Shown: piece after piece, positions 289-38,600 of the stretch | Numbering within the stretch: the stretch's first letter is position 1 | How the letters are laid out: every line of letters starts with the position of its first letter | NCBI GenBank assembly: GCA_949296475.1 | Contig: CASFOK010000004.1 | Coordinates: 861 to 64,860 of the forward strand | Length of the DNA: 64,000 nucleotides | DNA from: an uncultured Pseudomonadota bacterium | GTDB taxonomy: Bacteria > Pseudomonadota > Alphaproteobacteria > Rs-D84 | Direction: 5' to 3' | Notes under the pieces: model-generated | Database searches by the model: none | What the model saw: only the letters and a program-made list of their open reading frames with translations | What the model was told of the DNA's origin: nothing | Position numbers and translations under genes: made by a program

Positions 289-1194
289 TTATATATGCCA
301 ACCCATTGTTTTCTGTTTATTGCTTACTTTTAAAACAGGGATTAAACCAAATAGTTTATATTTTTCAATGCCCATATCATTATCAGCAACAGACGTTAAA
401 ATAGGAAAAACATTAAATAAAAGCCACTTGTAATTATAGCGTTTATCGTATGTAGGTTTTACGTCAAATTGGCATAAAAACACATACGTATCTATTCTGG
501 CGCGCCTATAATACATCCAACGTAATTTTCTTGTTTTTTTGACCGCAGACATAGAATTTGGGCGGTTTTTATACCAATAAGTGACACCTGGTACAAAAAC
601 AATACGATTACAGTTATACACTACTTTTGTCATAGTTAAAATATCCGAATAATATATCATATCCATCGGAAACGAAAACCTGTTATATTCCCAAAAACTT
701 CTTTTTATGATAAAACGCGAAGAAATTCCGCATTTATCAACACGTGTTTCGTTTATTTTATCTTGTGGTACGGACAAAACACATTCACCGTCAAAAACAA
801 CGCTGTTATGTCTATTTCGTTCGTTTATATAAGAAGCCACGGCAACGTCGGCATCAACTTGTTTTGCGCTGTCGTACAATTTTTTATAAAAATCTGGGTT
901 TATAACATCATCTGCGTCATAAAAATGAATATATTCACCCTTGGCATGTTTTACTGCCGAATTTCTTGCGTTTGCCACGCCCTGCTGATATTCTGCCCTT
1001 ATGACATGTAAATTCATATTTGAATAATCTTTAAAATATTGCTGAATTGTGAACGCCGTATCATCGGTACAACCGTCTAGAAACATGATTATCTCTATAT
1101 CTTTTTGTGGCAAAGTTTGCGTTCTTATACAATCCAACGTTTGCCTGATGTACCCTGCACAATTATATGCCGGTATTATAACCGATATTTTCAT
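289..1194 (-). CDS. Family 2 glycosyltransferase
   Basis: N-terminal ISVIIPAYNCAGYI...LDGCTDDT and a YDADD (DxD) motif, typical of GT2 enzymes. Confidence 0.85.
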   Translation of the reverse strand: MKISVIIPAYNCAGYIRQTLDCIRTQTLPQKDIEIIMFLDGCTDDTAFTIQQYFKDYSNMNLHVIRAEYQQGVANARNSAVKHAKGEYIHFYDADDVINPDFYKKLYDSAKQVDADVAVASYINERNRHNSVVFDGECVLSVPQDKINETRVDKCGISSRFIIKRSFWEYNRFSFPMDMIYYSDILTMTKVVYNCNRIVFVPGVTYWYKNRPNSMSAVKKTRKLRWMYYRRARIDTYVFLCQFDVKPTYDKRYNYKWLLFNVFPILTSVADNDMGIEKYKLFGLIPVLKVSNKQKTMGWHI

Positions 1195-1220
1195 ATTAAT
1201 CCCCCATGTTAAGAATTAAA

Positions 1221-1240
1221 CCGCCAAAGGAATTTGGCGG
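1221..1240 (-). promoter_or_regulatory. Terminator-like hairpin about 20 nt upstream of the GT2 RBS (possible expression platform of a leader RNA)
   Basis: On the minus strand, CCGCCAAA-TTCC-TTTGGCGG is followed by TTTAATTCTT, then the GGGGGA RBS and ATG at 1194. Confidence 0.35.
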
Positions 1241-1643
1241 TCGGGGAGTTAGCAATCAATACATGTATGATTCCGTTGCTTTCGGTTTTTACCTGTTTTA
1301 TAACAAACGGCCCCCCGACCCATTAAAAGGAACGGGGATATAACGATGCATAAGCACCGAAACATCAGATTAACGATGCTTACGCACCGCATGTATAGGC
1401 TTGCTACAGCCCCGAAGCCACATCCCTGTGGATTCAGGCATATGATATATCATTCTTTTTAATAACGCAAAATAAAATCTATAAAAATCAACGAAAGACG
1501 CAGAAAACTGCGGAAGCAATTCTGACAGATATCCCAAACCGCTGCGCCACCTTGCAAAATCGCCATGCGGTGACCGGCGTTATCCCGCCTTTTTGCTGCG
1601 GTTCAAACCCCTTGTTCGGGGGTTTTCGTCCCACATCCATAGC

Positions 1644-6917: not shown

Positions 6918-7406
6918 TTATCTTATTTTTATTTTGTTTTTTTCTTTTGCGGCCCGATTAAAAAATTTCGCCAGTTCCGTTCTAGATTTGTTACGTACAG
7001 GCCATACCTGCAGCATTCTATCTAAATCTATAACAGCATCCGCACTATGCTTTTTAAAAGGCACTTCTTTATATTCGCGTTCTATCATAGGTAAATTACG
7101 CCCTGGCTTATCCATAGGAACCTTGGCAAAAAGTTTTCCTTTATCGTCCTGACGCACAAAACGGCCTACAAGAAATTTAGGTCCCCATTTAACGTCAGAT
7201 TTATATAAAAAACCCTTTATTTTTAATTTTACACAAACGCCCAAAGTAAACTCTGGCAAGCTCGTTGGAAAATTGCTGGGTTTATGCGATTCCATAAAAT
7301 CAAAATCTTCTAAAAAGTTTTTTAATTTGTGTTTATTATCAAATTCTTTATATTTTGGTGCATAAAAATCTGTTTTAAACACATATACAGTTTCAACTTT
7401 CATCAT
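6918..7406 (-). CDS. Hypothetical protein, tandem paralog B
   Basis: Start trimmed to ATG after the AAGGTGG RBS, so it no longer overlaps the mutS stop. Paralogous to 6393-6899. Confidence 0.55.
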   Translation of the reverse strand: MMKVETVYVFKTDFYAPKYKEFDNKHKLKNFLEDFDFMESHKPSNFPTSLPEFTLGVCVKLKIKGFLYKSDVKWGPKFLVGRFVRQDDKGKLFAKVPMDKPGRNLPMIEREYKEVPFKKHSADAVIDLDRMLQVWPVRNKSRTELAKFFNRAAKEKNKIKIR

Positions 7407-7413
7407 ACCCACC

Positions 7414-9945
7414 TTAGCCAAATAAATTGAGTTGTGCAATCGCGTTCGTTTGTGAAACTTTTTTCACATTTTGTTTTTGCGTTTTTTCTTCTGTTGCAGC
7501 GTTTTTACAAACAGACGAATTACGGTCTTCTAAATCCGCCAACACGCTTTCGGCACGCGCAACGACAGATTCCGGCATCCCCGCCATCTTTGCCACATGT
7601 ATACCATACGACCTGTTTGCCACGCCTGCAACTATTTTATGCATGAATATTATTTCATTATTATGCTCGCGCACATCTATGGTCAAACAAGACACATTTT
7701 GCAATTGTCCATTCGCACACCCAACCAGCGCGGTCAGTTCATGATAGTGCGTCGCAAAAAGCGTCCTAGGTTGCAGGTTATCCAAATATTCCAAAACCGC
7801 CTGCGCAATCGCCATACCATCATACGTCGCAGTACCACGCCCTATTTCATCAAAGATTATAAAAGACTCTTTCGTTGCACGACGAAGAATGTTTGCGGTT
7901 TCGCTCATTTCCACCATAAAAGTAGATTGTCCCGCGGCCAAGTTATCCGAAGCACCCACACGACTGAACAACTGGTCACAAATACCAATCGTGGCACGCG
8001 TCGCCGGCACAAACGAGCCCATATGCGCCAACACTACCAACAACGCGTTTTGACGTAGATACGTTGATTTTCCCGCCATGTTTGGACCTGTCAACAAAGC
8101 AATTGATTTTGCGTTTAAGTTGCAGTCGTTCTTTACAAAATTATCCCCGCGCGCACGCAATACAGCCTCTATCACAGGATGACGACCGCCAACAACGTCA
8201 AACGCGTTATCTTCGGTCATATTAGGACGAACCCAAGAATACTTATCTGCCGCAACAGCCAAAGAATACCAGACGTCCAAATCCGCTAATAATTCCGCCG
8301 TTGATAGTAAATCGTCCGAAATATCACGAATCTTTTGAATCAACCTAGCAACTATATCGTTTTCTATGGCTGCAGATTTTTCGGCTGCACTTCGCACATT
8401 GTTATCTAAATCTATTAATTTGGCCGTTGTAAAGCGCATATTACCGGCCATTGTTTGACGATGTATAAAACCAGATTCCGGCTTCATCAAAGCATCTGCA
8501 CGGGCGCTGGGCACTTCTATAAAATACCCCAATATATTATTATATTTTATTTTCAACGTATGAACCCCGGTTGCCGCGGCATATTCCGCCTGCATACCAG
8601 CAATCGTTTCTTTGGCACCGTGCGCCAGACCACGCATGTTATCCAACGAAATATCAAACCCAGTCCTTATGACATTACCGTCACGAAAAAACGTTGGTAA
8701 TTCATCAGCCAGCGCAGAATTCAACTCTAACGCTAACTCGTCATGCGTTCTGATTTCGGCGAATCTGCCCGCAAAATTTGTGTCTAACCGCGTCGCCAAC
8801 ATCTTAGAATTTGGTAATTCTATCATAAAATCTGCAATATGACGCATGTCACGCGGCGTGCCGCGCCCAGCAAGCAACCTTGATAAACTGCGCCCCACAT
8901 CAGGAACGCTTGATAACACAGCAGATACAGCTGCCATAACATCTGGATTTATTAAAAAATGTCCTATATGTTCTTGTCTGCACCTTATTTCACCAATGTC
9001 ACCGGACAAAGTACGCAAATAAGAACGTAATTTCCTGGCGCCCGCCGCCGTTTTTGTGTTGTCCAAGACATCTATCAAGCAGGTTCCACCTTCATTAATC
9101 GGCGCATCAATCTCTAAACTTTTCCACGTGGCAGAATCTATTAACAACTGACGACCAGACTTGTATACATAAGGCGCCCTAAATGCAATTGATGCCCCGC
9201 GCTGCGTGTTAAATAAATATCCCGCAAGTAAACTTATCGCATTTTCACAGTTTGTATCATCGTTATCCGTACGAACCGCACCGCCAAAAACCTTTGATAC
9301 AATCTGCCCTATATCAGCGCGTTGATACAATTTTTCATACACAGGCGTTGTTTTAAATACGTCTCGTAAATGTAAAATCGTTTCGTTTTCCGCCAAAGAT
9401 TCCGGATAAATAACCTCGGCAGGATTAATTCTGACCAAGTCATCCAAAACATCCGCCGTTTGCCCGATAAAAAATTCACCCGTTGAAATATCGCAGCCGG
9501 CAATATCAAACTTGCCGCCGTCCAGTACTGTTACAGCCAATAAAAAGTTAGAGTTTTTCGGCGTTAACAAATTTTCGTCCGTCAGCGTACCGGGCGTCAA
9601 AACACGAACGACCTTTCTTTCAATAAATTTGTGCCCGCGCGCTTTCGCTTCGGCCGGCGTTTCCATCTGCTCTACCAGCGCAACCCGAAACCCTGCCCTG
9701 ACCAAGCGGCCGAAATAATTATCAGCCGCATGCCAAGGTATCCCACACATTGGTATATTTTCACCGTCACCGTCTGTACCGCGTTGCGTTAATACCAATC
9801 CCAGATTTTCACTGATTGTCTTTGCGTCTTGAAAAAACGCCTCATAAAAATCCCCAAGTCTAAACATCAATAAAGCGTCTGGATTTTCAGACTTCATATC
9901 AACATACTGTTGCATAACGGGGGTTAATTTACTTTTATCCGCCAC
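7414..9945 (-). CDS. mutS: DNA mismatch repair protein MutS
   Basis: 843 aa with TPVMQQY...GDFYE at the N-terminus, Walker A GPNMAGKST, and TATYDG. Apparent GTG start. Confidence 0.97.
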   Translation of the reverse strand: MADKSKLTPVMQQYVDMKSENPDALLMFRLGDFYEAFFQDAKTISENLGLVLTQRGTDGDGENIPMCGIPWHAADNYFGRLVRAGFRVALVEQMETPAEAKARGHKFIERKVVRVLTPGTLTDENLLTPKNSNFLLAVTVLDGGKFDIAGCDISTGEFFIGQTADVLDDLVRINPAEVIYPESLAENETILHLRDVFKTTPVYEKLYQRADIGQIVSKVFGGAVRTDNDDTNCENAISLLAGYLFNTQRGASIAFRAPYVYKSGRQLLIDSATWKSLEIDAPINEGGTCLIDVLDNTKTAAGARKLRSYLRTLSGDIGEIRCRQEHIGHFLINPDVMAAVSAVLSSVPDVGRSLSRLLAGRGTPRDMRHIADFMIELPNSKMLATRLDTNFAGRFAEIRTHDELALELNSALADELPTFFRDGNVIRTGFDISLDNMRGLAHGAKETIAGMQAEYAAATGVHTLKIKYNNILGYFIEVPSARADALMKPESGFIHRQTMAGNMRFTTAKLIDLDNNVRSAAEKSAAIENDIVARLIQKIRDISDDLLSTAELLADLDVWYSLAVAADKYSWVRPNMTEDNAFDVVGGRHPVIEAVLRARGDNFVKNDCNLNAKSIALLTGPNMAGKSTYLRQNALLVVLAHMGSFVPATRATIGICDQLFSRVGASDNLAAGQSTFMVEMSETANILRRATKESFIIFDEIGRGTATYDGMAIAQAVLEYLDNLQPRTLFATHYHELTALVGCANGQLQNVSCLTIDVREHNNEIIFMHKIVAGVANRSYGIHVAKMAGMPESVVARAESVLADLEDRNSSVCKNAATEEKTQKQNVKKVSQTNAIAQLNLFG

Positions 9946-27418: not shown

Positions 27419-27554
27419 TGTCATTCCCGCGCAGGCGGGAATAGGGTCTATTAAATTTATATCGCAGATTTCAGATTAATGGAAAAAACATAGATATATA
27501 CTAATTAATTAAATAATTATTTTAGTCCCTATTCCCGCCTGCGCGGGAATGACA
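27419..27554. mobile_element. MITE-like element: ~32-nt terminal inverted repeats, each containing the hairpin ATTCCCGC-GCAG-GCGGGAAT, around an AT-rich core
   Basis: Left end TGTCATTCCCGCGCAGGCGGGAATAGGGTCTA. Reverse complement of the right end TGTCATTCCCGCGCAGGCGGGAATAGGGACTA (one mismatch). Confidence 0.55.
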
Positions 27555-27592: not shown

Positions 27593-27617
27593 GACCCGCC
27601 TGCGCGGGAATGACAAA
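27593..27617. repeat. Solo partial copy of the same palindromic repeat
   Basis: CCCGCCTGCGCGGGAATGACAAA is identical to 27534-27556. Confidence 0.55.
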
Positions 27618-27644: not shown

Positions 27645-27965
27645 TTAAATTTTTACCATATTTTTTATATATTCTGTCAAACCAACAGCCAAATCATTCC
27701 ATTCAGGATTCATTGTTTCTATTAATCTATACTTCCACGCACGATTCCATTTTTTTAATGCCTTTTCGCGTGCAATTGCATCGTGTATATATTGATAATG
27801 TTCAAAGTAAGCCAGTTTGTCAATATTGTGCTGTTTGGTGTACCCAGGTACCAGTCCCATTTTATGTTCAATTATTCTGCGTTCTAAATTATTTGTAACC
27901 CCGATATATGTTGCCTTGGCACGATCATTAAATAATATATATACCCAAAAGTTGTATTCTTTCAT
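27645..27965 (-). CDS. Stand-alone GIY-YIG nuclease domain protein
   Basis: WVYILFN...TYIGVTNNLERRIIEH...REKALKKW...NPEWNDL pattern of short GIY-YIG (URI-domain) proteins. Confidence 0.85.
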   Translation of the reverse strand: MKEYNFWVYILFNDRAKATYIGVTNNLERRIIEHKMGLVPGYTKQHNIDKLAYFEHYQYIHDAIAREKALKKWNRAWKYRLIETMNPEWNDLAVGLTEYIKNMVKI

Positions 27966-28008
27966 GTATTAAATACTATAAAATATAGTATGTGTATAAC
28001 AACTGTTT

Positions 28009-28197
28009 TTATTCTATACACTTCATTGGGTGGTGGGTGGAATCAATAAACATTATTAATTGAAAAACTGTGGGTTTTTGTCGACCAATCACAATTTGAT
28101 GATAACCATTTTCATCGGTATCAAATATAGAATATGCAATAAATAACGGCATATTACATTTTTGTCGGATTTGTTCTATTTCATTACCCAGTGTCAT
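28009..28197 (-). CDS. Small hypothetical protein, weakly XRE-HTH-like
   Basis: 62 aa counted from the ATG preceded by a GGGGG RBS. LGNEIEQIRQK...IVIGRQKPTVFQL resembles a degenerate XRE helix-turn-helix. Confidence 0.35.
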   Translation of the reverse strand: MTLGNEIEQIRQKCNMPLFIAYSIFDTDENGYHQIVIGRQKPTVFQLIMFIDSTHHPMKCIE

Positions 28198-28213
28198 TTT
28201 ACCCCCGATATTC

Positions 28214-28383
28214 AAAAATAAAACCACCGGAAAATTCAGGTGGTTGGAGTTTACAAACAATTGAACGAATTGCGGCCTTATTCAATATATTCAGACCACT
28301 CCAACCTATTGGTTGGATTTTCGCCTGAGCCTCAGGCGCGTTCAATGGGCTACTAATCCCAACAACAGAACACCTGTTGCGAT
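28214..28383 (-). ncRNA. Structured RNA unit 1 (unassigned family): sRNA or cis leader of the downstream ORFs
   Basis: Has its own promoter and intrinsic terminator, is homologous to unit 2 with compensatory changes, and has no conserved ORF. Confidence 0.6.
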
Positions 28384-28387
28384 ATGT

Positions 28388-28416
28388 ATTATAACCACCC
28401 ATAAATCACATATCAA
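28388..28416 (-). promoter_or_regulatory. Sigma70-like promoter of RNA unit 1
   Basis: Minus strand TTGATA-17 nt-TATAAT. Confidence 0.6.
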
Positions 28417-28454
28417 ATTATTTTTTCTGGTGCTTTTTACTCCTTTACGTTAAA

Positions 28455-28629
28455 CAAAAAACCACCGGAAAATTCAGGTGGTTGGAGTTTAGTAGCAATT
28501 CAATCAGAAATCGCGGTCTTATTCAATATATTCAGACTCACTCCAACCAATTGGTTGGAGATATTTTTCGCCATCACTGGCGCTGATTGAATAGGCTACT
28601 AATCCCAGCAACAGAACACCTGTTGCGAT
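28455..28629 (-). ncRNA. Structured RNA unit 2 (paralog of unit 1)
   Basis: Same architecture. Terminator AACCACC-N10-GGTGGTT plus T6. Promoter immediately upstream. Confidence 0.6.
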
Positions 28630-28633
28630 ATGT

Positions 28634-28662
28634 ATTATAAATGCTGCTTTTTGATATTGCAA
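28634..28662 (-). promoter_or_regulatory. Sigma70-like promoter of RNA unit 2
   Basis: Minus strand TTGCAA-17 nt-TATAAT. Confidence 0.6.
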
Positions 28663-28684
28663 TCGTATTTTTCTTTGGTATAAT
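28657..28684 (+). promoter_or_regulatory. Sigma70-like promoter of the tRNA-Val(GAC) array
   Basis: Plus strand TTGCAA-16 nt-TATAAT. Its -35 hexamer is the same palindromic TTGCAA used by the divergent RNA unit 2 promoter. Confidence 0.5.
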
Positions 28685-28706
28685 CTGTGCGCTTGAAGAA
28701 AATATC

Positions 28707-28790
28707 GGGTGGTTAGCTCAGTTGGTCAGCCGCGTACGTTGACATCTTAAAGGTCGTTGACTTTCTGGACATAGCACCGAAAAAAAATAT
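28707..28790 (+). pseudogene. Decayed tRNA-Val-like unit 1
   Basis: The first 20 nt, the anticodon arm (GAC loop) and the variable region match the real tRNA. The D-stem 3' strand, T arm and acceptor 3' strand are replaced. Confidence 0.7.
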
Positions 28791-28872
28791 GGGTGGTTAG
28801 CTCAGTTGGTCAGCCGCGTACGTTGACATCGTAAAGGTCGTTGGCTTTCTGGACATAGCACCGAAAAACATT
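28791..28872 (+). pseudogene. Decayed tRNA-Val-like unit 2
   Basis: Nearly identical to unit 1, carrying the same lesions with a few substitutions. Confidence 0.7.
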
Positions 28873-28949
28873 GGGTGGTTAGCTCAGTTGGTTAGAGCGT
28901 TACGTTGACATCGTAAAGGTCGTTGGTTCGAGTCCAATACCACCCACCA
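28873..28949 (+). tRNA. tRNA-Val (anticodon GAC), CCA encoded
   Basis: Canonical cloverleaf: GGGTGGT/ACCACCC acceptor, AGCTCAGTTGGTTAGAGC D arm, TTACG-TTGACAT-CGTAA anticodon arm, GTTGG-TTCGAGT-CCAAT T arm. Confidence 0.93.
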
Positions 28950-29020
28950 TTATAAAAAAACAAGAAAAGAAATGATGCGAATGTACAATTAATCTTACTA
29001 AAATTTCTGACGGGATTCCT

Positions 29021-29042
29021 GGGCGCCCGTTGGCGCCCTTTT
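29021..29042 (+). terminator. GC-rich hairpin plus T-run between tRNA-Val and metG
   Basis: GGGCGCC-CGTT-GGCGCCC followed by TTTT, 22 nt upstream of the metG ATG. Confidence 0.55.
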
Positions 29043-29064
29043 ATTAAATAACAAAGGCAACAAT

Positions 29065-31068
29065 ATGACAACTGACAATAAACAAAAATATCTTATTACT
29101 TCTGCATTGCCATATGTTAATGGCGAATTGCACTTGGGGCACCTTATCGGGTGCTGGCTGCCGTCTGATATATATGCCCGCTTTTGTCGCGCATGTGGGC
29201 GTGATGTATTATATGTTTGCGGGGCAGACGAACATGGTACACCTGTTGTTGTCGGTGCTATGAAAGAAAATATGTCGCCTTTTGATTATTCAAGCAAATA
29301 TTATGAAAAGCACTTGCGCGCAGTTAAAGACTTTAACTTGTCTTTTGACCTTTATGGACGTACCCACACAGAATTGCAAGAAAAGTTAATTCACGAATTA
29401 TTCTTGCGTCTGGATAACGAGGGCTTAATTGAAGAACGCGAAACTTTACAACCGTTTTCTGTTGACGACAATATGTTCCTGGCCGACCGTCAGTTATTAG
29501 GCACTTGCCCAAAATGTGGTTATGAAAATGCACGCGGTGACCAATGCGATAAATGCAGTGCGTCGTATGAAGCGACAGAATTACTAAACCCACGCAGCGC
29601 GATTTCTGGCAGCACAAACATTGAAATGCGCCCAACTAAAAACCTATTCTTCCTTGCTTCTAAAATAGAAGGCAAATGGAAACAATGGCTTGAAACACAC
29701 GCACCAAAATGGTCCAAGACCGCCATTGCTATTGCACAAGGTTGGGCAAAAGAAGGCTTGCAAGACACTTCTATTACTCGTGATTTATCTTGGGGCATTC
29801 CTGTAAATAAACCTGGATACGAAAATAAAGTTTTCTATGTTTGGTTTGATGCACCTTGGGGTTATGTTTCTATCTCGCAGGCTGCAAATAAAGACTGGGA
29901 AACATGGTGGAAAAATCCTGATTGTCATTATGCACAATTTATGGGCAAGGATAATGTTAAGTTCCATGCGGTTTTATTCCCTGAACAGCAACTGGCGATG
30001 AACGACAACTGGAAAACTGTTGACCAGTTAAAAGCAATGAACTTCCTGAATTTTGAAGGCGGTAAGTTTTCTAAATCTGAAAAGCGTGGTGTGTTCTTGG
30101 ACGAAGCAGTCAGCATTGCACCTGCTGACGCTTGGCGTTATGCGCTGATTGCATCCGCACCAGAAACAGACGATACAGACTTTACTTTTGCGCGCTTTGC
30201 AGATATCGTTAACAAAGACCTGAACGGTATGTTGGGCAACTTTGTTTCGCGTGTTTGCAAATTGACTGATAAAAACTTTGGACTAACCGTTCCAAATGCA
30301 GGCGAATTAGATGCTTCTTTAACTGCGCAAGTAAACGAAAAAATTGCAGAACTTACTGCTGCGCTGGACGCATGCGAATTCCGTGCCGCTGTTGTTGCGT
30401 TGCGTTCGTTGTATGCAATTGGTAACGAATATATGACTGTTAAAGAACCGTGGACGCTTGTTAAAAATGGAAACGCCGAGCAAGCGGGCGCAGTACTAAA
30501 CGAATGTTTTCAACTGATAGACTTGTATGCGCGCGTTTCTGCCCCGTTTATTCCGGACGCTGCAGAAAAAATACAGCGTGTATTTAACAACACGCACGAC
30601 CTGTCTTGGCCAAAAGAATTTGAACGCAGAATTCAAAATGGCGAAGCCTTCACTGTTCCAGAAAACTTATTTTCCAGAATTGATGATGCGCGCGTCGCAG
30701 AACTGACTGAAAAATATGCTAAAAAAGAAGACAACAATGTTAAACCTGTTGTTGCTAAAATAATCGCGGTTAAAAATCATCCCTCTCGTGATGACTTGCA
30801 TCTTTTAACAGTTGATGACGGTACAAATCATAATTTACAAATTGTATGTGGTGCGCCAAATGTTCGTGTTGGTTTAATTGGCGTATTGGCGCCTGTTGGT
30901 TGTGTGCTGCCGACAATGAAAAAACCGATTTCCCAGCGCACAGTTGCAGGTACAGAATCTTTCGGTATGATGTGCAGTGCTGCTGAACTGGGGCAGGGCA
31001 ATAATGCAGATGAAATAATAGAACTGGATAGTGATGCAAAAATAGGCAGTATTTGGGAAATAAAATGA
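29065..31068 (+). CDS. metG: Methionyl-tRNA synthetase with C-terminal tRNA-binding (Trbp111-like) domain
   Basis: ALPYVNGELHLGH (HIGH), KFSKS (KMSKS), zinc knuckle CPKCG...CDKC, and a C-terminal VCGAPNV OB-fold. Confidence 0.96.
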   Translation: MTTDNKQKYLITSALPYVNGELHLGHLIGCWLPSDIYARFCRACGRDVLYVCGADEHGTPVVVGAMKENMSPFDYSSKYYEKHLRAVKDFNLSFDLYGRTHTELQEKLIHELFLRLDNEGLIEERETLQPFSVDDNMFLADRQLLGTCPKCGYENARGDQCDKCSASYEATELLNPRSAISGSTNIEMRPTKNLFFLASKIEGKWKQWLETHAPKWSKTAIAIAQGWAKEGLQDTSITRDLSWGIPVNKPGYENKVFYVWFDAPWGYVSISQAANKDWETWWKNPDCHYAQFMGKDNVKFHAVLFPEQQLAMNDNWKTVDQLKAMNFLNFEGGKFSKSEKRGVFLDEAVSIAPADAWRYALIASAPETDDTDFTFARFADIVNKDLNGMLGNFVSRVCKLTDKNFGLTVPNAGELDASLTAQVNEKIAELTAALDACEFRAAVVALRSLYAIGNEYMTVKEPWTLVKNGNAEQAGAVLNECFQLIDLYARVSAPFIPDAAEKIQRVFNNTHDLSWPKEFERRIQNGEAFTVPENLFSRIDDARVAELTEKYAKKEDNNVKPVVAKIIAVKNHPSRDDLHLLTVDDGTNHNLQIVCGAPNVRVGLIGVLAPVGCVLPTMKKPISQRTVAGTESFGMMCSAAELGQGNNADEIIELDSDAKIGSIWEIK

Positions 31069-35617: not shown

Positions 35618-38600
35618 ATGGCATACCCAAAAACAGAACCAAAAGCCGATTTTCCGAAACTGGAACAAGAAATGCTGACTTTCTGGAGAAATGATGACAC
35701 GTTTCACAAGTCTTTAAATCAAACTAAATTAGGACATCCTTTCTCGTTCTATGACGGACCTCCTTTTGCAAATAATTTGCCACATTGGGGACACTTGGGC
35801 GTTTCTGCCGTAAAAGATATGGTTGGTCGTTATCAGACCATGCTTGGAAAACATGTTGTTCGCGAACTTGGTTGGGATTGCCATGGACTGCCAGCAGAAG
35901 CATCCGTTGAAAAAAAGCAAGGCAGACAAGCAAAAGATATCGTCGCAACAGACGGTATTGCAGCATTCTGCGATATGTGCAGAAATGACGTTTTAACTTA
36001 TTCTAATGAATGGCTAAAATTTATTGAACGTATCGGTCGTTGGGTTGATGGCGGTGATGAAAAAGGCTATCGCACAATGGACAAAAATTATATGGAATCT
36101 GTTATATGGGCAATGAAAGAATTGCATAATAAGGGCTTGTTATATAAAGATTATCGTGTTAACCCGTTTGATTGGAAGTTAGGTACCGTTTTATCTAATT
36201 CCGAAGCATCTAGTGAATATCAAGACGTCGTTGATGACGCAATCACTGTTTGGTTTGAACTAGAAAACGGGGACAGAGTATTAGCATGGACAACAACACC
36301 ATGGACTTTGCCGGCAAATTCCGCATTGGCAGTAAATCTAAATATGAAATATCTTCGCATGCAAGACGAAGACGGCAGCGTTTATGTAATTGCTGAAACC
36401 AGGCTTTCTGCATATGAAAAGCAATTTGCAGCCACAAAAAAGATTGGCGAATTAAAAGGCAGTGAACTGGTCGGTAAAAAATATCGTCCTTTGTTTGATT
36501 ACTATTCAAATGACGAAACAGGTTTGTTATATCAAATTATACCCGCAGAATATGTATCTGATTCTGACGGTACTGGTATCGTTCATATCGCACCAGCTTA
36601 TGGTGAAGATGACTTCTGGGCCGCAAAAAACATTGATCCAAAGTTCCCGGTTCTATTAAATGTTGATGATTACGGTAATTTTACAGATGAGGTCAAAGAC
36701 TGGGCAGGGGAAAATATATTCGTTGCTAATCCTAAAATTATACAACACTTGCGTGATAACGGGCACTTAGTTAAGAAAGAACAATATAAGCACAGTTATC
36801 CATATGGTCCACGCAGTAAAGAAAAGTTGATTTATCGCGCAACAGATTCTTGGTATATTGACGTACCAAAAATCCGCGAAAAATTAATTGAGAATACAAA
36901 AAAACACACAAAATGGACTTCTGCTGGCGACCGCTTTTTGTCCTGGATAGAAGGTGCACGTCCGTGGTCTGTATCAAGAAATCGTTTCTGGGGAACGCCA
37001 CTGCCAATATGGGAAAAAGACGGGCAGTATAAAATCTTTGGCTCTATTGCAGAAATGGAAGAATTTTTCGGTGTGGAAATTCATGACCTGCATCGCCCGA
37101 CTTTAGATGCACTTACAAAAGACGGGTGGAAGCGTATTACAGACGTTTTAGATTGCTGGGTTGAATCTGGTTCAATGCCTTTTGCATCGCTGCATTATCC
37201 ATTTGAAAACGCAGATAAATTTGAAGCGACTTTCCCAGCCGACTATATAATAGAAGGACAAGATCAAACACGTGGTTGGTTTTATTCTTTGATGGTTTTG
37301 GCAACCGCGTTATTTGATAAGCCTGCCTTTAAGACTGTTTCTGTAAACGGTATGGTCGTTGACGATAATAAAAAGAAGATGTCTAAATCGCTTGGGAATT
37401 TCGTTAACCCAAGTGAACAAATAGAAAAATATGGCGCAGACGCGGTACGTTTATTCATATTAGGTTCAAACTTCTTAAAGGCGGAACCCGTTGGTATTGA
37501 TATGGAAGGTAAGGTCTTTACAGAATCTACAAAGACTATTCTGACACCGCTGTGGAATGCGTATCACTTCTTTACTTTATACGCAAACGCGGGAAATATC
37601 ACGGCGCAAGAAAACACAAATTCAGAAAACGTGTTGGATAGATATATCTTGGCAGAATTAAACGAGTTAATTTCTGTTGTATCCACAGCACTTAACGAAT
37701 ATAAACCAGACGTTGCAATTAAAGAATTTATAAGATTCTTGGACGTATTAAATAACTGGTATATTCGTCGTGGTCGCGCACGTTTCTGGGATGAAGAACA
37801 AGACGCTTTTGATACCTTGTATTACGTTTTAATAAATCTATGTCGCACGTTGGCGCCTTTTGCCCCATTTATCAGCGACTATATTTATAAAAACTTAACA
37901 GGAACAGACAGTGTGCATCTGCAATCTTTCCCTGTTGCACAAGAATACGACCATAAAATCGTAGACGATATGCGTCGCGTGCAATCAATCGTTTCTGTTG
38001 GTAAACAACTGCGTGAACAATATAAACTGCGCAATCGCTTGCCGCTGTCTAAGATGACGGTTGCTGGAACTGATTTGACAGAATACGCAGATATAATAAA
38101 AGACGAATTAAATGTCAAAGAAATTGAATTTACTTCTGACGTATCTAGTGTTGCAGATTCTTTTGTATATCTAATTACACCTAAGATCGGTGCAAGATTG
38201 GGTGGGGCATTAAAAGAAATCATACCTGCTGTAAAACGTGGTGAATATGAAATTTCTGGAACAAATTTGAATGTCGGTCAATATACATTAAATTCCGATG
38301 AATTTGAAAACCGCCTGACTGTTAAAGAAGGCATAACAGGTGCAGCTTTGCCTGATAATACTGCTGTTATAGTATTGGATACAGAAATTAATTCAGAACT
38401 GGTTGCAGAAGGGCTGGCAAACGATACTTTGCGCTTTATCCAAGACACCAGAAAAACTGCTGGTATGGATGTATCTGACAGGATAATATTAGAATATAAT
38501 GCAGATCCAGCATTGGCAAATGCTATTGAACAACACCGCCAACACATTATGGACGAGGCATTAATAACAAATATGTCACGTGGTGACGGAAAATATAACA

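Follow-up and report, generated by a model that had tools for sequence, protein, structure and literature searches.

In attenuators of the trp/his type, a promoter-proximal leader contains a segment 2 that pairs with either segment 1 or segment 3, the latter being part of a terminator directly upstream of the gene. Cyclic di-GMP-I (GEMM) riboswitches couple a complex fold with conserved junction and loop nucleotides to a terminator expression platform, and they lie ahead of genes of the surface or adhesin type, many times in one genome and now and then as tandem copies. Structured leaders with conserved loops and a terminator also precede surface, polysaccharide or accessory operons in the case of the LoaP leader, HK022 put, Bacillus EAR, ANTAR and RAT, and genes of these kinds are controlled by RfaH-, UpxY- and LoaP-type systems. 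Finally, the sibling small RNAs (sRNAs) AbcR1/2, CcsR1-4 and 'cuckoo' RNAs, PrrF1/2 and NgncR_162/163 are homologues arranged head to tail in varying copy number; every one of them has a promoter and a Rho-independent terminator of its own, and they carry C-rich motifs resembling an anti-Shine-Dalgarno (anti-SD) sequence. The present analysis concerns two homologous RNA units, c1 and c2, in a 64,000-nucleotide (nt) stretch of DNA (hereafter the window; contig CASFOK010000004.1) from an uncultured alphaproteobacterium of the order Rs-D84. These units were classified as members of an RNA family that is new as a family and known in kind, namely a terminator/antiterminator leader whose logic is that of classical attenuators and transcriptional riboswitches. 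As judged from sequence comparison and folding predictions, each unit is probably a complete transcription module acting in cis as a switch that is OFF by default.

Units c1 and c2 lie head to tail on the minus strand, with 82% identity by blastn (86% as mean column identity). Their parts are listed below, where OFF stands for the predicted terminating state.

28662..28634, minus strand: c1 promoter TTGCAA-17-TATAAT (promoter scan, 10/12 matches)
28631..28452, minus strand: c1, the upstream leader RNA unit, reaching from its predicted 5' end through the whole U-run
28608..28626, minus strand: c1 P1, 5'-terminal hairpin GCAACAG-GUGUU-CUGUUGC with a GNNUU-type pentaloop
28604..28607, minus strand: c1 segment 0 (UGGG), partner of CUCC in segment 3 (OFF) or of CCN after P2a (hairpin P0)
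28595..28602, minus strand: c1 P2 5' strand UUAGUAGC, partner GCUACUAA at 28489-28496
28583..28592, minus strand: c1 P3 5' strand AUUCAAUCAG, partner CUGAUUGAAU at 28498-28507
28569..28582, minus strand: c1 P4 hairpin CGCCA-GUGA-UGGCG
28553..28560, minus strand: c1 segment 1 CUCCAACC, the 5' arm of P5
28541..28548, minus strand: c1 segment 2 GGUUGGAG, the 3' arm of P5 and candidate antiterminator strand
28513..28540, minus strand: c1 P6 hairpin, conserved loop GAAUA-UAUU-GAAUA at 28520-28533
28496..28513, minus strand: c1 P7 alternative hairpin, CGAUU (28509-28513) with AAUUG (28496-28500), enclosing the P3 3' strand
28480..28487, minus strand: c1 segment 3 CUCCAACC, its CUCC facing segment 0 and its AACC starting the terminator stem
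28483..28452, minus strand: c1 intrinsic terminator AACCACC-N10-GGUGGUU plus U-run
28416..28388, minus strand: c2 promoter TTGATA-17-TATAAT (promoter scan, 11/12 matches)
28385..28214, minus strand: c2, the gene-proximal leader RNA unit, with the same set of parts as c1
28362-28380, minus strand: c2 P1
28311-28317, minus strand: c2 segment 1
28299-28306, minus strand: c2 segment 2
28279-28292, minus strand: c2 P6 loop
28242-28249, minus strand: c2 segment 3
28245..28214, minus strand: c2 intrinsic terminator AACCACC-N10-GGUGGUU plus U-run

The two promoters are the top two promoter-like (sigma-70-like) sites of the region, and both terminators were missed by a simple terminator scan only through its loop limit of 8. 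The same fold was obtained for c1 and c2: after hairpin P1 comes a multi-branched domain, which the long-range helices P2 and P3 close and which encloses P4, P5 and P6, and then the terminator. P5 is formed by CUCCAACC/GGUUGGAG, P6 bears a conserved 14-nt loop, and P4 is variable. The minimum free energy (MFE) was -70.1 kcal/mol for c1 (z -8.6) and -60.6 kcal/mol for c2 (z -5.3), with zero shuffles as good in either case; c1 scored 202 bits with a covariance model and 121 bits with nhmmer, and c2 172 bits with the covariance model. In c2, the long-range helix P3 becomes AUUGAACG:CGUUCAAU and P4 reads CGCCUG-AGGCU-CAGGCG. Unit c2 is chimeric, its P2 5' arm UUAGUAGC coming from one subtype and its 3' arm GUUUGUAA from another; the resulting two mismatches weaken P2 in c2, whereas c1 is intact. 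A preliminary description of this DNA, made from the sequence alone, had reported the paired homologous units on the minus strand with their promoters and terminators, together with the 5' hairpin, the long-range helix and the variable hairpin, and all of these were located as described. The series CUCCAACC ... GGUUGGAG ... CUCCAACC given there was also recovered, although in c2 the first copy is shortened to UCCAACC. Its further argument that the signal is RNA rather than protein was upheld, as the open reading frames (ORFs) over the units (28199-28402 and 28519-28662) differ between c1 and c2 and are not conserved. A protein-coding reading was rejected on these grounds and because the substitutions in the helices are compensatory.

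Compensatory change, initially seen between two copies, was confirmed across 115 homologues. RNAalifold applied to a plain MAFFT alignment missed the inner helices due to indels, and a covariance model built from the window species was used instead to guide the alignment of 115 true copies. Standard pairs were present in 91.9% of cells (68.8% after shuffling), 50 of the 56 pairs showed changes on both sides, and the covariation score of 0.563, as opposed to 0.154 for shuffled data, was reached by 0/500 shuffles (slid controls gave 0.05-0.07). Covariation was seen for P1, P2, P3, P4, P6 and the terminator. Changes on both sides affected every pair of P1 (7/7, with 98.5% of cells paired), P2 (8/8, 94.8% paired), P3 (10/10) and P4 (5/5, loops mostly G-initial tetraloops), as well as 5/6 pairs of the terminator. 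P5 is nearly invariant in sequence, in part as a result of the pattern with which the copies were collected, and the pairs between segments 0 and 3 are G:C in 111-113 of 118 sequences. The elements that are conserved while unpaired, or fixed in sequence, comprise uGGG (segment 0), aaCC after P2a, GG after segment 2 and two loops, GNNUU as the pentaloop of P1 and GAAUA-N4-GAAUA in P6. The P6 loop reads GAAUAUAUUGAAUA in 43/115 copies, and in a few others an extra hairpin takes the place of its centre. We presume that the P6 internal loop resembles the UAA/GAN motif and that GGUUGGA also adjoins the anti-SD at the 3' end of 16S ribosomal RNA, both of which are treated here as leads and not as evidence. 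Kissing between the P1 and P6 loops (GUUC with GAAU) is conceivable on paper, but no claim is made for it, as GAAUA in P6 is invariant and the P1 loops vary without a testable pattern.

It was concluded with high confidence that the units represent a real RNA family that is undescribed and matches no Rfam model. A search of the whole window against Rfam 15 at the gathering score returned transfer RNAs (tRNAs) only, and for 27900-29100 at E<=10 only noise was obtained (best 22.6 bits against a threshold of 80 bits), in line with the preliminary description, which had recognised no known family. The same search at the gathering score of 18 further loci with family members also gave tRNAs only. 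In particular, there was no match to T-box RF00230 even at E<=10, and the helix between segments 2 and 3 is a perfect duplex without a bulge. A genome scan covering one genome per species, with a pattern built on segments 1-3, yielded at least 120 stretches, with about 114 true family members among the matches listed; nearly all of the members among these matches occur in metagenome-assembled genomes (MAGs) of gut or rumen Alphaproteobacteria. With an nhmmer profile, 154 good copies were obtained, and the family is present in about 115 MAG contigs, which belong mostly to 'Candidatus Enterousia' and related Alphaproteobacteria of the gut. The hosts are labelled 'Candidatus Enterousia', 'Rickettsiales bacterium' or 'uncultured Alphaproteobacteria', and one MAG was often matched on several contigs. 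Enterousia falls within Rs-D84, an order of uncultured gut bacteria whose genomes are smaller than 1 Mb (PMC12306168). Literature searches on Enterousia, on structured RNA in gut Alphaproteobacteria and on the motif strings found nothing relevant, and no paper was found on gene regulation in Candidatus Enterousia / Rs-D84.

The position of the units relative to genes was examined after near-identical strains, contig-end copies and array-internal copies had been removed, which left 113 informative copies. In 104 of these (92%), an ORF on the same strand, at least 45 amino acids (aa) long and with a Shine-Dalgarno (SD) sequence, starts within 200 nt of the U-run, at a median distance of 21 nt; the start lies no more than 40 nt from the U-run in 92 copies, and the SD is often GGGGG. 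Across the family, a -35/-10 pair stands at a constant distance before P1, and the whole 5' untranslated region therefore appears to be the leader element. Taken with the gene arrangement, this predicts with good confidence that the element is a cis-regulatory 5' leader. In the window, the genes that follow c2 are:

28197..28009, minus strand: 62-aa XRE-like helix-turn-helix (HTH) ORF, predicted to be regulated, with SD GGGGG and ATG 15 nt past the c2 U-run
27965..27645, minus strand: GIY-YIG domain gene downstream of the 62-aa ORF (Pfam PF01541, E 3.6e-17)

The 62-aa ORF gave nothing significant against Pfam and NCBIfam, and profile methods were needed: its family matched XRE proteins by hhalign with 86% probability (E 4.8e-6), and a PDB profile matched the XRE N-terminal domain (E 0.0018). 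Homologues of this ORF are also found downstream of the leader at other non-redundant loci. A promoter-like site (28002..27975) is also present near the start of the GIY-YIG gene. In the family as a whole, the proteins encoded downstream include the 58-78-aa family of the window ORF, two other XRE-HTH families, many signal-peptide proteins without a Pfam match, a Gly-rich secreted protein, a YadA-anchor protein, an EamA transporter, an EcoRI-type methylase and a GT2 glycosyltransferase. Two secreted families without a Pfam match were seen behind the leader (downstream ORFs of loci L013, L027, L028, L053, L061, L094, L096 and L109): a recurrent ~65-aa family with a signal peptide followed by …IASTTYVE…ANQTMAGTYTVSGTL.VPTPPLP, and Cys-rich proteins ending …CWCKMTHP….

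Segment 2 is complementary both to segment 1 and to segment 3, and segment 3 shares AACC with the terminator stem. In members found by homology, and not by the pattern, the three segments were found to change together, and this holds for at least five variants. A column-wise count of pairs between segments 2 and 3 on alignment A3 was dropped, because insert columns shift the variant rows, and the triples are instead given directly:

Canonical: segment 1 CUCCAACC, segment 2 GGUUGGAG, segment 3 CUCCAACC
L093, L109 and L119: segment 1 CUCCUGAC, segment 2 GUCAGGAG, segment 3 CUCCUGAC
L128: segment 1 CCCCUGUC, segment 2 GGCAGGGG, segment 3 CCCCUGUC
L047: segment 1 CUCCAGCC-like, segment 2 GGCUGGAG, segment 3 CUCCAGCC
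Type II, L127: segment 1 UCCCUGAC, segment 2 GUCGGGGA, segment 3 UCCCCGAC
Type II, window 1435..1211: segment 1 UCCCCGUUCC, segment 2 GGGUCGGGGGG, segment 3 CUCCCCGACC

The last of these belongs to a third, divergent member in the window, which has the architecture of the canonical leader (z -6.05) and its own promoter, and which again stands before a gene:

1435..1211, minus strand: type II leader (covariance model 26.6 bits, E 8.5e-5)
1329-1338, minus strand: type II segment 1
1311-1321, minus strand: type II segment 2
1239-1248, minus strand: type II segment 3
1218-1242, minus strand: type II terminator
1201-1205, minus strand: SD GGGGG
289-1194, minus strand: GT2 glycosyltransferase gene (Pfam PF00535, E 6e-30)

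A metagenome scan added 8 further type II leaders, 6 of which have an SD and start codon soon past the terminator, mostly of signal-peptide-like ORFs. The type II triples (window member, L127 and the 8 metagenome loci) follow the form UCCCYGAC/GUCGGGGR/CUCCCCGACC. Canonical and variant triples also coexist in one genome (L093, L109 and L119), and this speaks against the idea that one sequence-specific factor acts in trans on segments 1-3.

An alternative, considered unlikely, is that the units are genes for trans-acting sibling sRNAs, so that the terminated RNA of ~170 nt would be the functional product and the closeness of a downstream gene secondary; the CCUCC motifs might, for example, pair with SD regions, or the GAAUA-N4-GAAUA loop might titrate a protein. 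The promoter and terminator of each unit, the A-rich linker and 3' U-tail, and the existence of tandem arrays of 1-4 intact units in which the upstream units are structurally constrained are all in keeping with such genes, and with termination being the default by energy, the short RNA would be expected to be abundant. However, 92% of the informative copies have their terminator directly before an SD and ORF on the same strand, which is unexpected for free-standing genes, and another unit follows in only 6/130 non-redundant copies. This reading also leaves segment 3 without a role that would account for its co-variation with segments 1 and 2 or its overlap with the terminator. The known sibling sRNAs are trans-acting RNAs of 60-110 nt with C-rich motifs in loops, whereas the present units are ~175 nt long and hold these motifs base-paired in the stems of the stable fold. 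Rfam sRNA models, including those of known alphaproteobacterial sRNA families, gave no match. A dual role, as both leader and sRNA, is possible.

For the switch, the pairings expected of an attenuator were found, as the 1:2, 2:3 and 3:4 pairings are mutually exclusive and 3:4 is the intrinsic terminator. The attenuator geometry of the preliminary description, ending just before the ribosome binding site of the small ORF, is supported by the co-variation of segments 1, 2 and 3. Two further alternative hairpins were identified. P7 pairs the nucleotides immediately 5' of the P3 3' strand with those immediately 3' of it, and so excludes P3; it takes the forms CAAUU:AAUUG, CUAUA:UAUAG, CUAA:UUAG and GCA:UGC. 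Its stem has at least 4 base pairs (bp) in 107/115 copies, with a mean of 4.87 bp compared to 3.17 +/- 0.15 with permuted partners, and its covariation with fixed anchors was 0.362 (0.208 when shuffled, reached by 0/500); among distinct rows, 11 have U:A and 10 have A:U at the second pair. P0, formed by segment 0 and the CCN after P2a, excludes the long-range helix P2 and covaries as well, occurring as GGG:CCC, GAGG:CCUC, CAGG:CCUG, GCGAG:CUCGC and AGAGA:UCUCU. Both P0 and P7 form by themselves in RNAfold once the pairing of segments 2 and 3 is forced.

Unlike in trp/his-type attenuators, the 1:2 pairing here is embedded in a multi-helix domain of ~120 nt that long-range helices close, and the genes do not form biosynthetic operons. 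A search for a conserved leader peptide with SD and start reaching segment 1 found none: a start-like AUG, UUG or GUG occurs at segment 0 in only about half of the copies and without an SD, and the frame from segment 0 stops before segment 1 in the two copies checked (L031 and L034). Attenuation by a leader peptide was rejected, given that no SD, start and ORF up to segment 1 are conserved. As in a riboswitch, a conserved structured domain is followed by an expression platform within a 5' leader, and the domain may be regarded as a putative aptamer. In contrast to riboswitches, the highest sequence conservation falls in the expression platform (segments 1-3) and not in a ligand pocket, no Rfam riboswitch model matches, and the gene set gives no clue to a ligand.

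In the proposed mechanism, each module comprises a sigma-70 promoter, the structured leader of ~175 nt and an intrinsic terminator 10-35 nt ahead of the SD of the regulated gene. In the OFF state, segment 2 (GGUUGGAG) would be held by segment 1 (CUCCAACC) in P5, with P2 and P3 closing the multi-branched domain; segment 0 (UGGG) would pair with CUCC of segment 3, the AACC of which would open the terminator stem, and transcription would stop with release of an RNA of ~170 nt. In the ON state, segment 2 would pair with segment 3 and the terminator would lose its 5' arm, with the P2 5' strand kept in the loop of P0 and the P3 3' strand in that of P7, and RNA polymerase would proceed into the gene. 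A trigger, be it a small molecule, a protein, an RNA or the kinetics of transcription, would have to supply roughly 9-14 kcal/mol or act co-transcriptionally. The sequence data show the layout of promoter, terminator and gene, the covariation of the OFF helices, the joint change of segments 1, 2 and 3 and the covariation of P0 and P7; folding into the ON state in vivo and regulated termination are inferred.

Several observations weigh against this reading. Compared with the MFE/OFF fold, the ON fold is less stable by ~14 kcal/mol at full length and by ~9 kcal/mol at the decision point, and P5, a perfect local hairpin, is the first to form. Termination is thus expected to be the default, with an effector or a kinetic mechanism needed to overcome it; the switch geometry of the preliminary description stands as far as the pairings exist, but the state it had offered as the alternative is the less stable one and requires such control. 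The near-invariance of segments 1-3 in most sequences is partly built in, the scan pattern having required them, and about 6 types of variant underlie the covariation of the triples. The functions of the downstream genes are heterogeneous and do not point to a ligand, and every homologue is known from MAG or metagenome contigs. Lastly, the upstream units of arrays are intact and conserved without a gene directly after them, which also fits a role in trans.

The energetic cost of the ON fold would also suit a second alternative, judged improbable, in which the leader is a docking site for an antitermination factor (a NusG-type paralogue, a Q/AlpA-like protein or another RNA-binding protein) that renders RNA polymerase terminator-resistant without any refolding of the RNA, the resistance covering the leader terminator and later ones. 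The surface, polysaccharide and accessory types of gene downstream agree with this, and the P1 GNNUU and P6 GAAUA-N4-GAAUA loops are conserved in sequence and not in pairing. Such docking would, however, leave unexplained the co-variation of segments 1, 2 and 3 and that of P0 and P7; no candidate factor was found, and canonical and variant triples share one genome. In the comparison with the LoaP, put, EAR, ANTAR and RAT systems, the present leader gave no motif match, no match in Rfam, where motifs such as EAR and put would be expected, and no two-hexaloop ANTAR pattern, and in it the alternative RNA pairings themselves are under selection.

In the window, two such modules would act in series before the gene for the 62-aa XRE-like regulator. 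The upstream unit would mostly give terminated leader RNA, and any read-through from it would also have to pass the second terminator. The conservation of such arrays could reflect serial attenuation, a function of the terminated RNAs in trans or as decoys, or a combination of the two. A GIY-YIG protein identical to that of the window was found on many MAG and metagenome contigs with the gene order kept (metG, tRNA-Val, RNA array, 62-aa ORF, GIY-YIG, mreB, rnpA), and the strains concerned (L001-L010) carry 1, 2, 3 or 4 leader units. Three unit subtypes occur in these strains, set apart by compensatory changes in P1, P2, P3, P4 and P6, and all array units within the window species keep their helices. 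Units with mismatched P2 arms (window c2, L004 c2 and L009 c3) indicate recombination within the array. The sequences are consistent with evolution of the array by unequal crossing-over or gene conversion, and the variation between 1 and 4 copies points to unequal crossing-over. The low frequency of tandem copies (6/130, as given above) marks the tandem state as a local feature. Of the earlier proposal of a tandem pair, the two units were retained, but they represent a local duplication of a widespread leader family and not a special two-gene sRNA locus. Divergent back-to-back leader pairs with genes both ways were also observed (L047 3887-4285, L093 455-1097 and L113 3340-4272), that of L093 consisting of one canonical and one variant-triple leader.

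Several copies per genome (multiple contigs of one MAG), variable copy number with recombining units, and heterogeneous downstream genes could also suggest a repeated, possibly mobile, promoter-carrying cassette with structure serving RNA stability or insulation and a constitutive or leaky, unregulated terminator, but this is very unlikely, since copies within a genome have diverged while every helix is kept by compensatory changes, which indicates long-term selection on the RNA fold and not recent spread, two mutually exclusive pairing sets are both conserved, no terminal repeats were seen, and the family pattern had 0 matches in the 2.9 million viral contigs of IMG/VR.

A more far-reaching version of the cis-acting switch can be put forward only tentatively: the leaders might constitute a new riboswitch-like class, with at least 2 subtypes, that serves as the main regulatory device of Rs-D84 and gates many transcription units by one global signal, through an unusual four-segment strand exchange (0:3 + 1:2 versus 2:3) helped by the loop-trapping hairpins P0 and P7 competing with P2 and P3, with array leaders doubling as decoys or sRNAs. 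If this were true, the gated units would be those for surface proteins, XRE regulators, glycosyltransferases and accessory genes, and the global signal could be a dedicated factor, a second messenger or a molecule from the host or a partner. The genes behind this multi-copy leader with its very strong covariation support, which encode secreted or surface proteins and small XRE regulators, would make up a regulon, and the leader would give a handle on cell-surface control in Enterousia / Rs-D84. For RNA biology, it would represent an orphan switch whose two conformations can both be read from sequence comparison, an expression platform with three co-evolving segments, and natural tandem arrays of variable length.

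Other repeats were also observed. Beside tRNA-Val(GAC) at 28873-28949, two ~84-nt direct repeats (~28700-28870, plus-strand sense) copy the 5' two-thirds of the tRNA (acceptor 5' strand, D arm and anticodon arm) and diverge from it at the T arm, where …GGTCGTTGG is followed by CTTTCTGGACATAGCACC. Neither ARAGORN nor Rfam called these repeats, which may be left over from integration or recombination events at this tRNA gene; leader copies in L012, L022, L109 and L110 likewise have a tRNA gene next to them. An intergenic palindromic repeat, GTCATTCCCGCGCAGGCGGGAAT (ATTCCCGC-GCAG-GCGGGAAT), occurs on the minus strand at ~27531-27553 and ~27595-27614, at 36451 of the reverse-complemented window, and downstream of the GIY-YIG gene in L001-L010; we take it to resemble Neisseria dRS3-type repeats. 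In L066, from a mouse-gut Alphaproteobacteria MAG, a ~126-nt tandem array unrelated to the leader family lies beside a tRNA gene (~7327-7700 on the plus strand, or 274-524 in reverse) and contains the hairpin AAACACCC-CCAAACGGG-GGGTGTTT.

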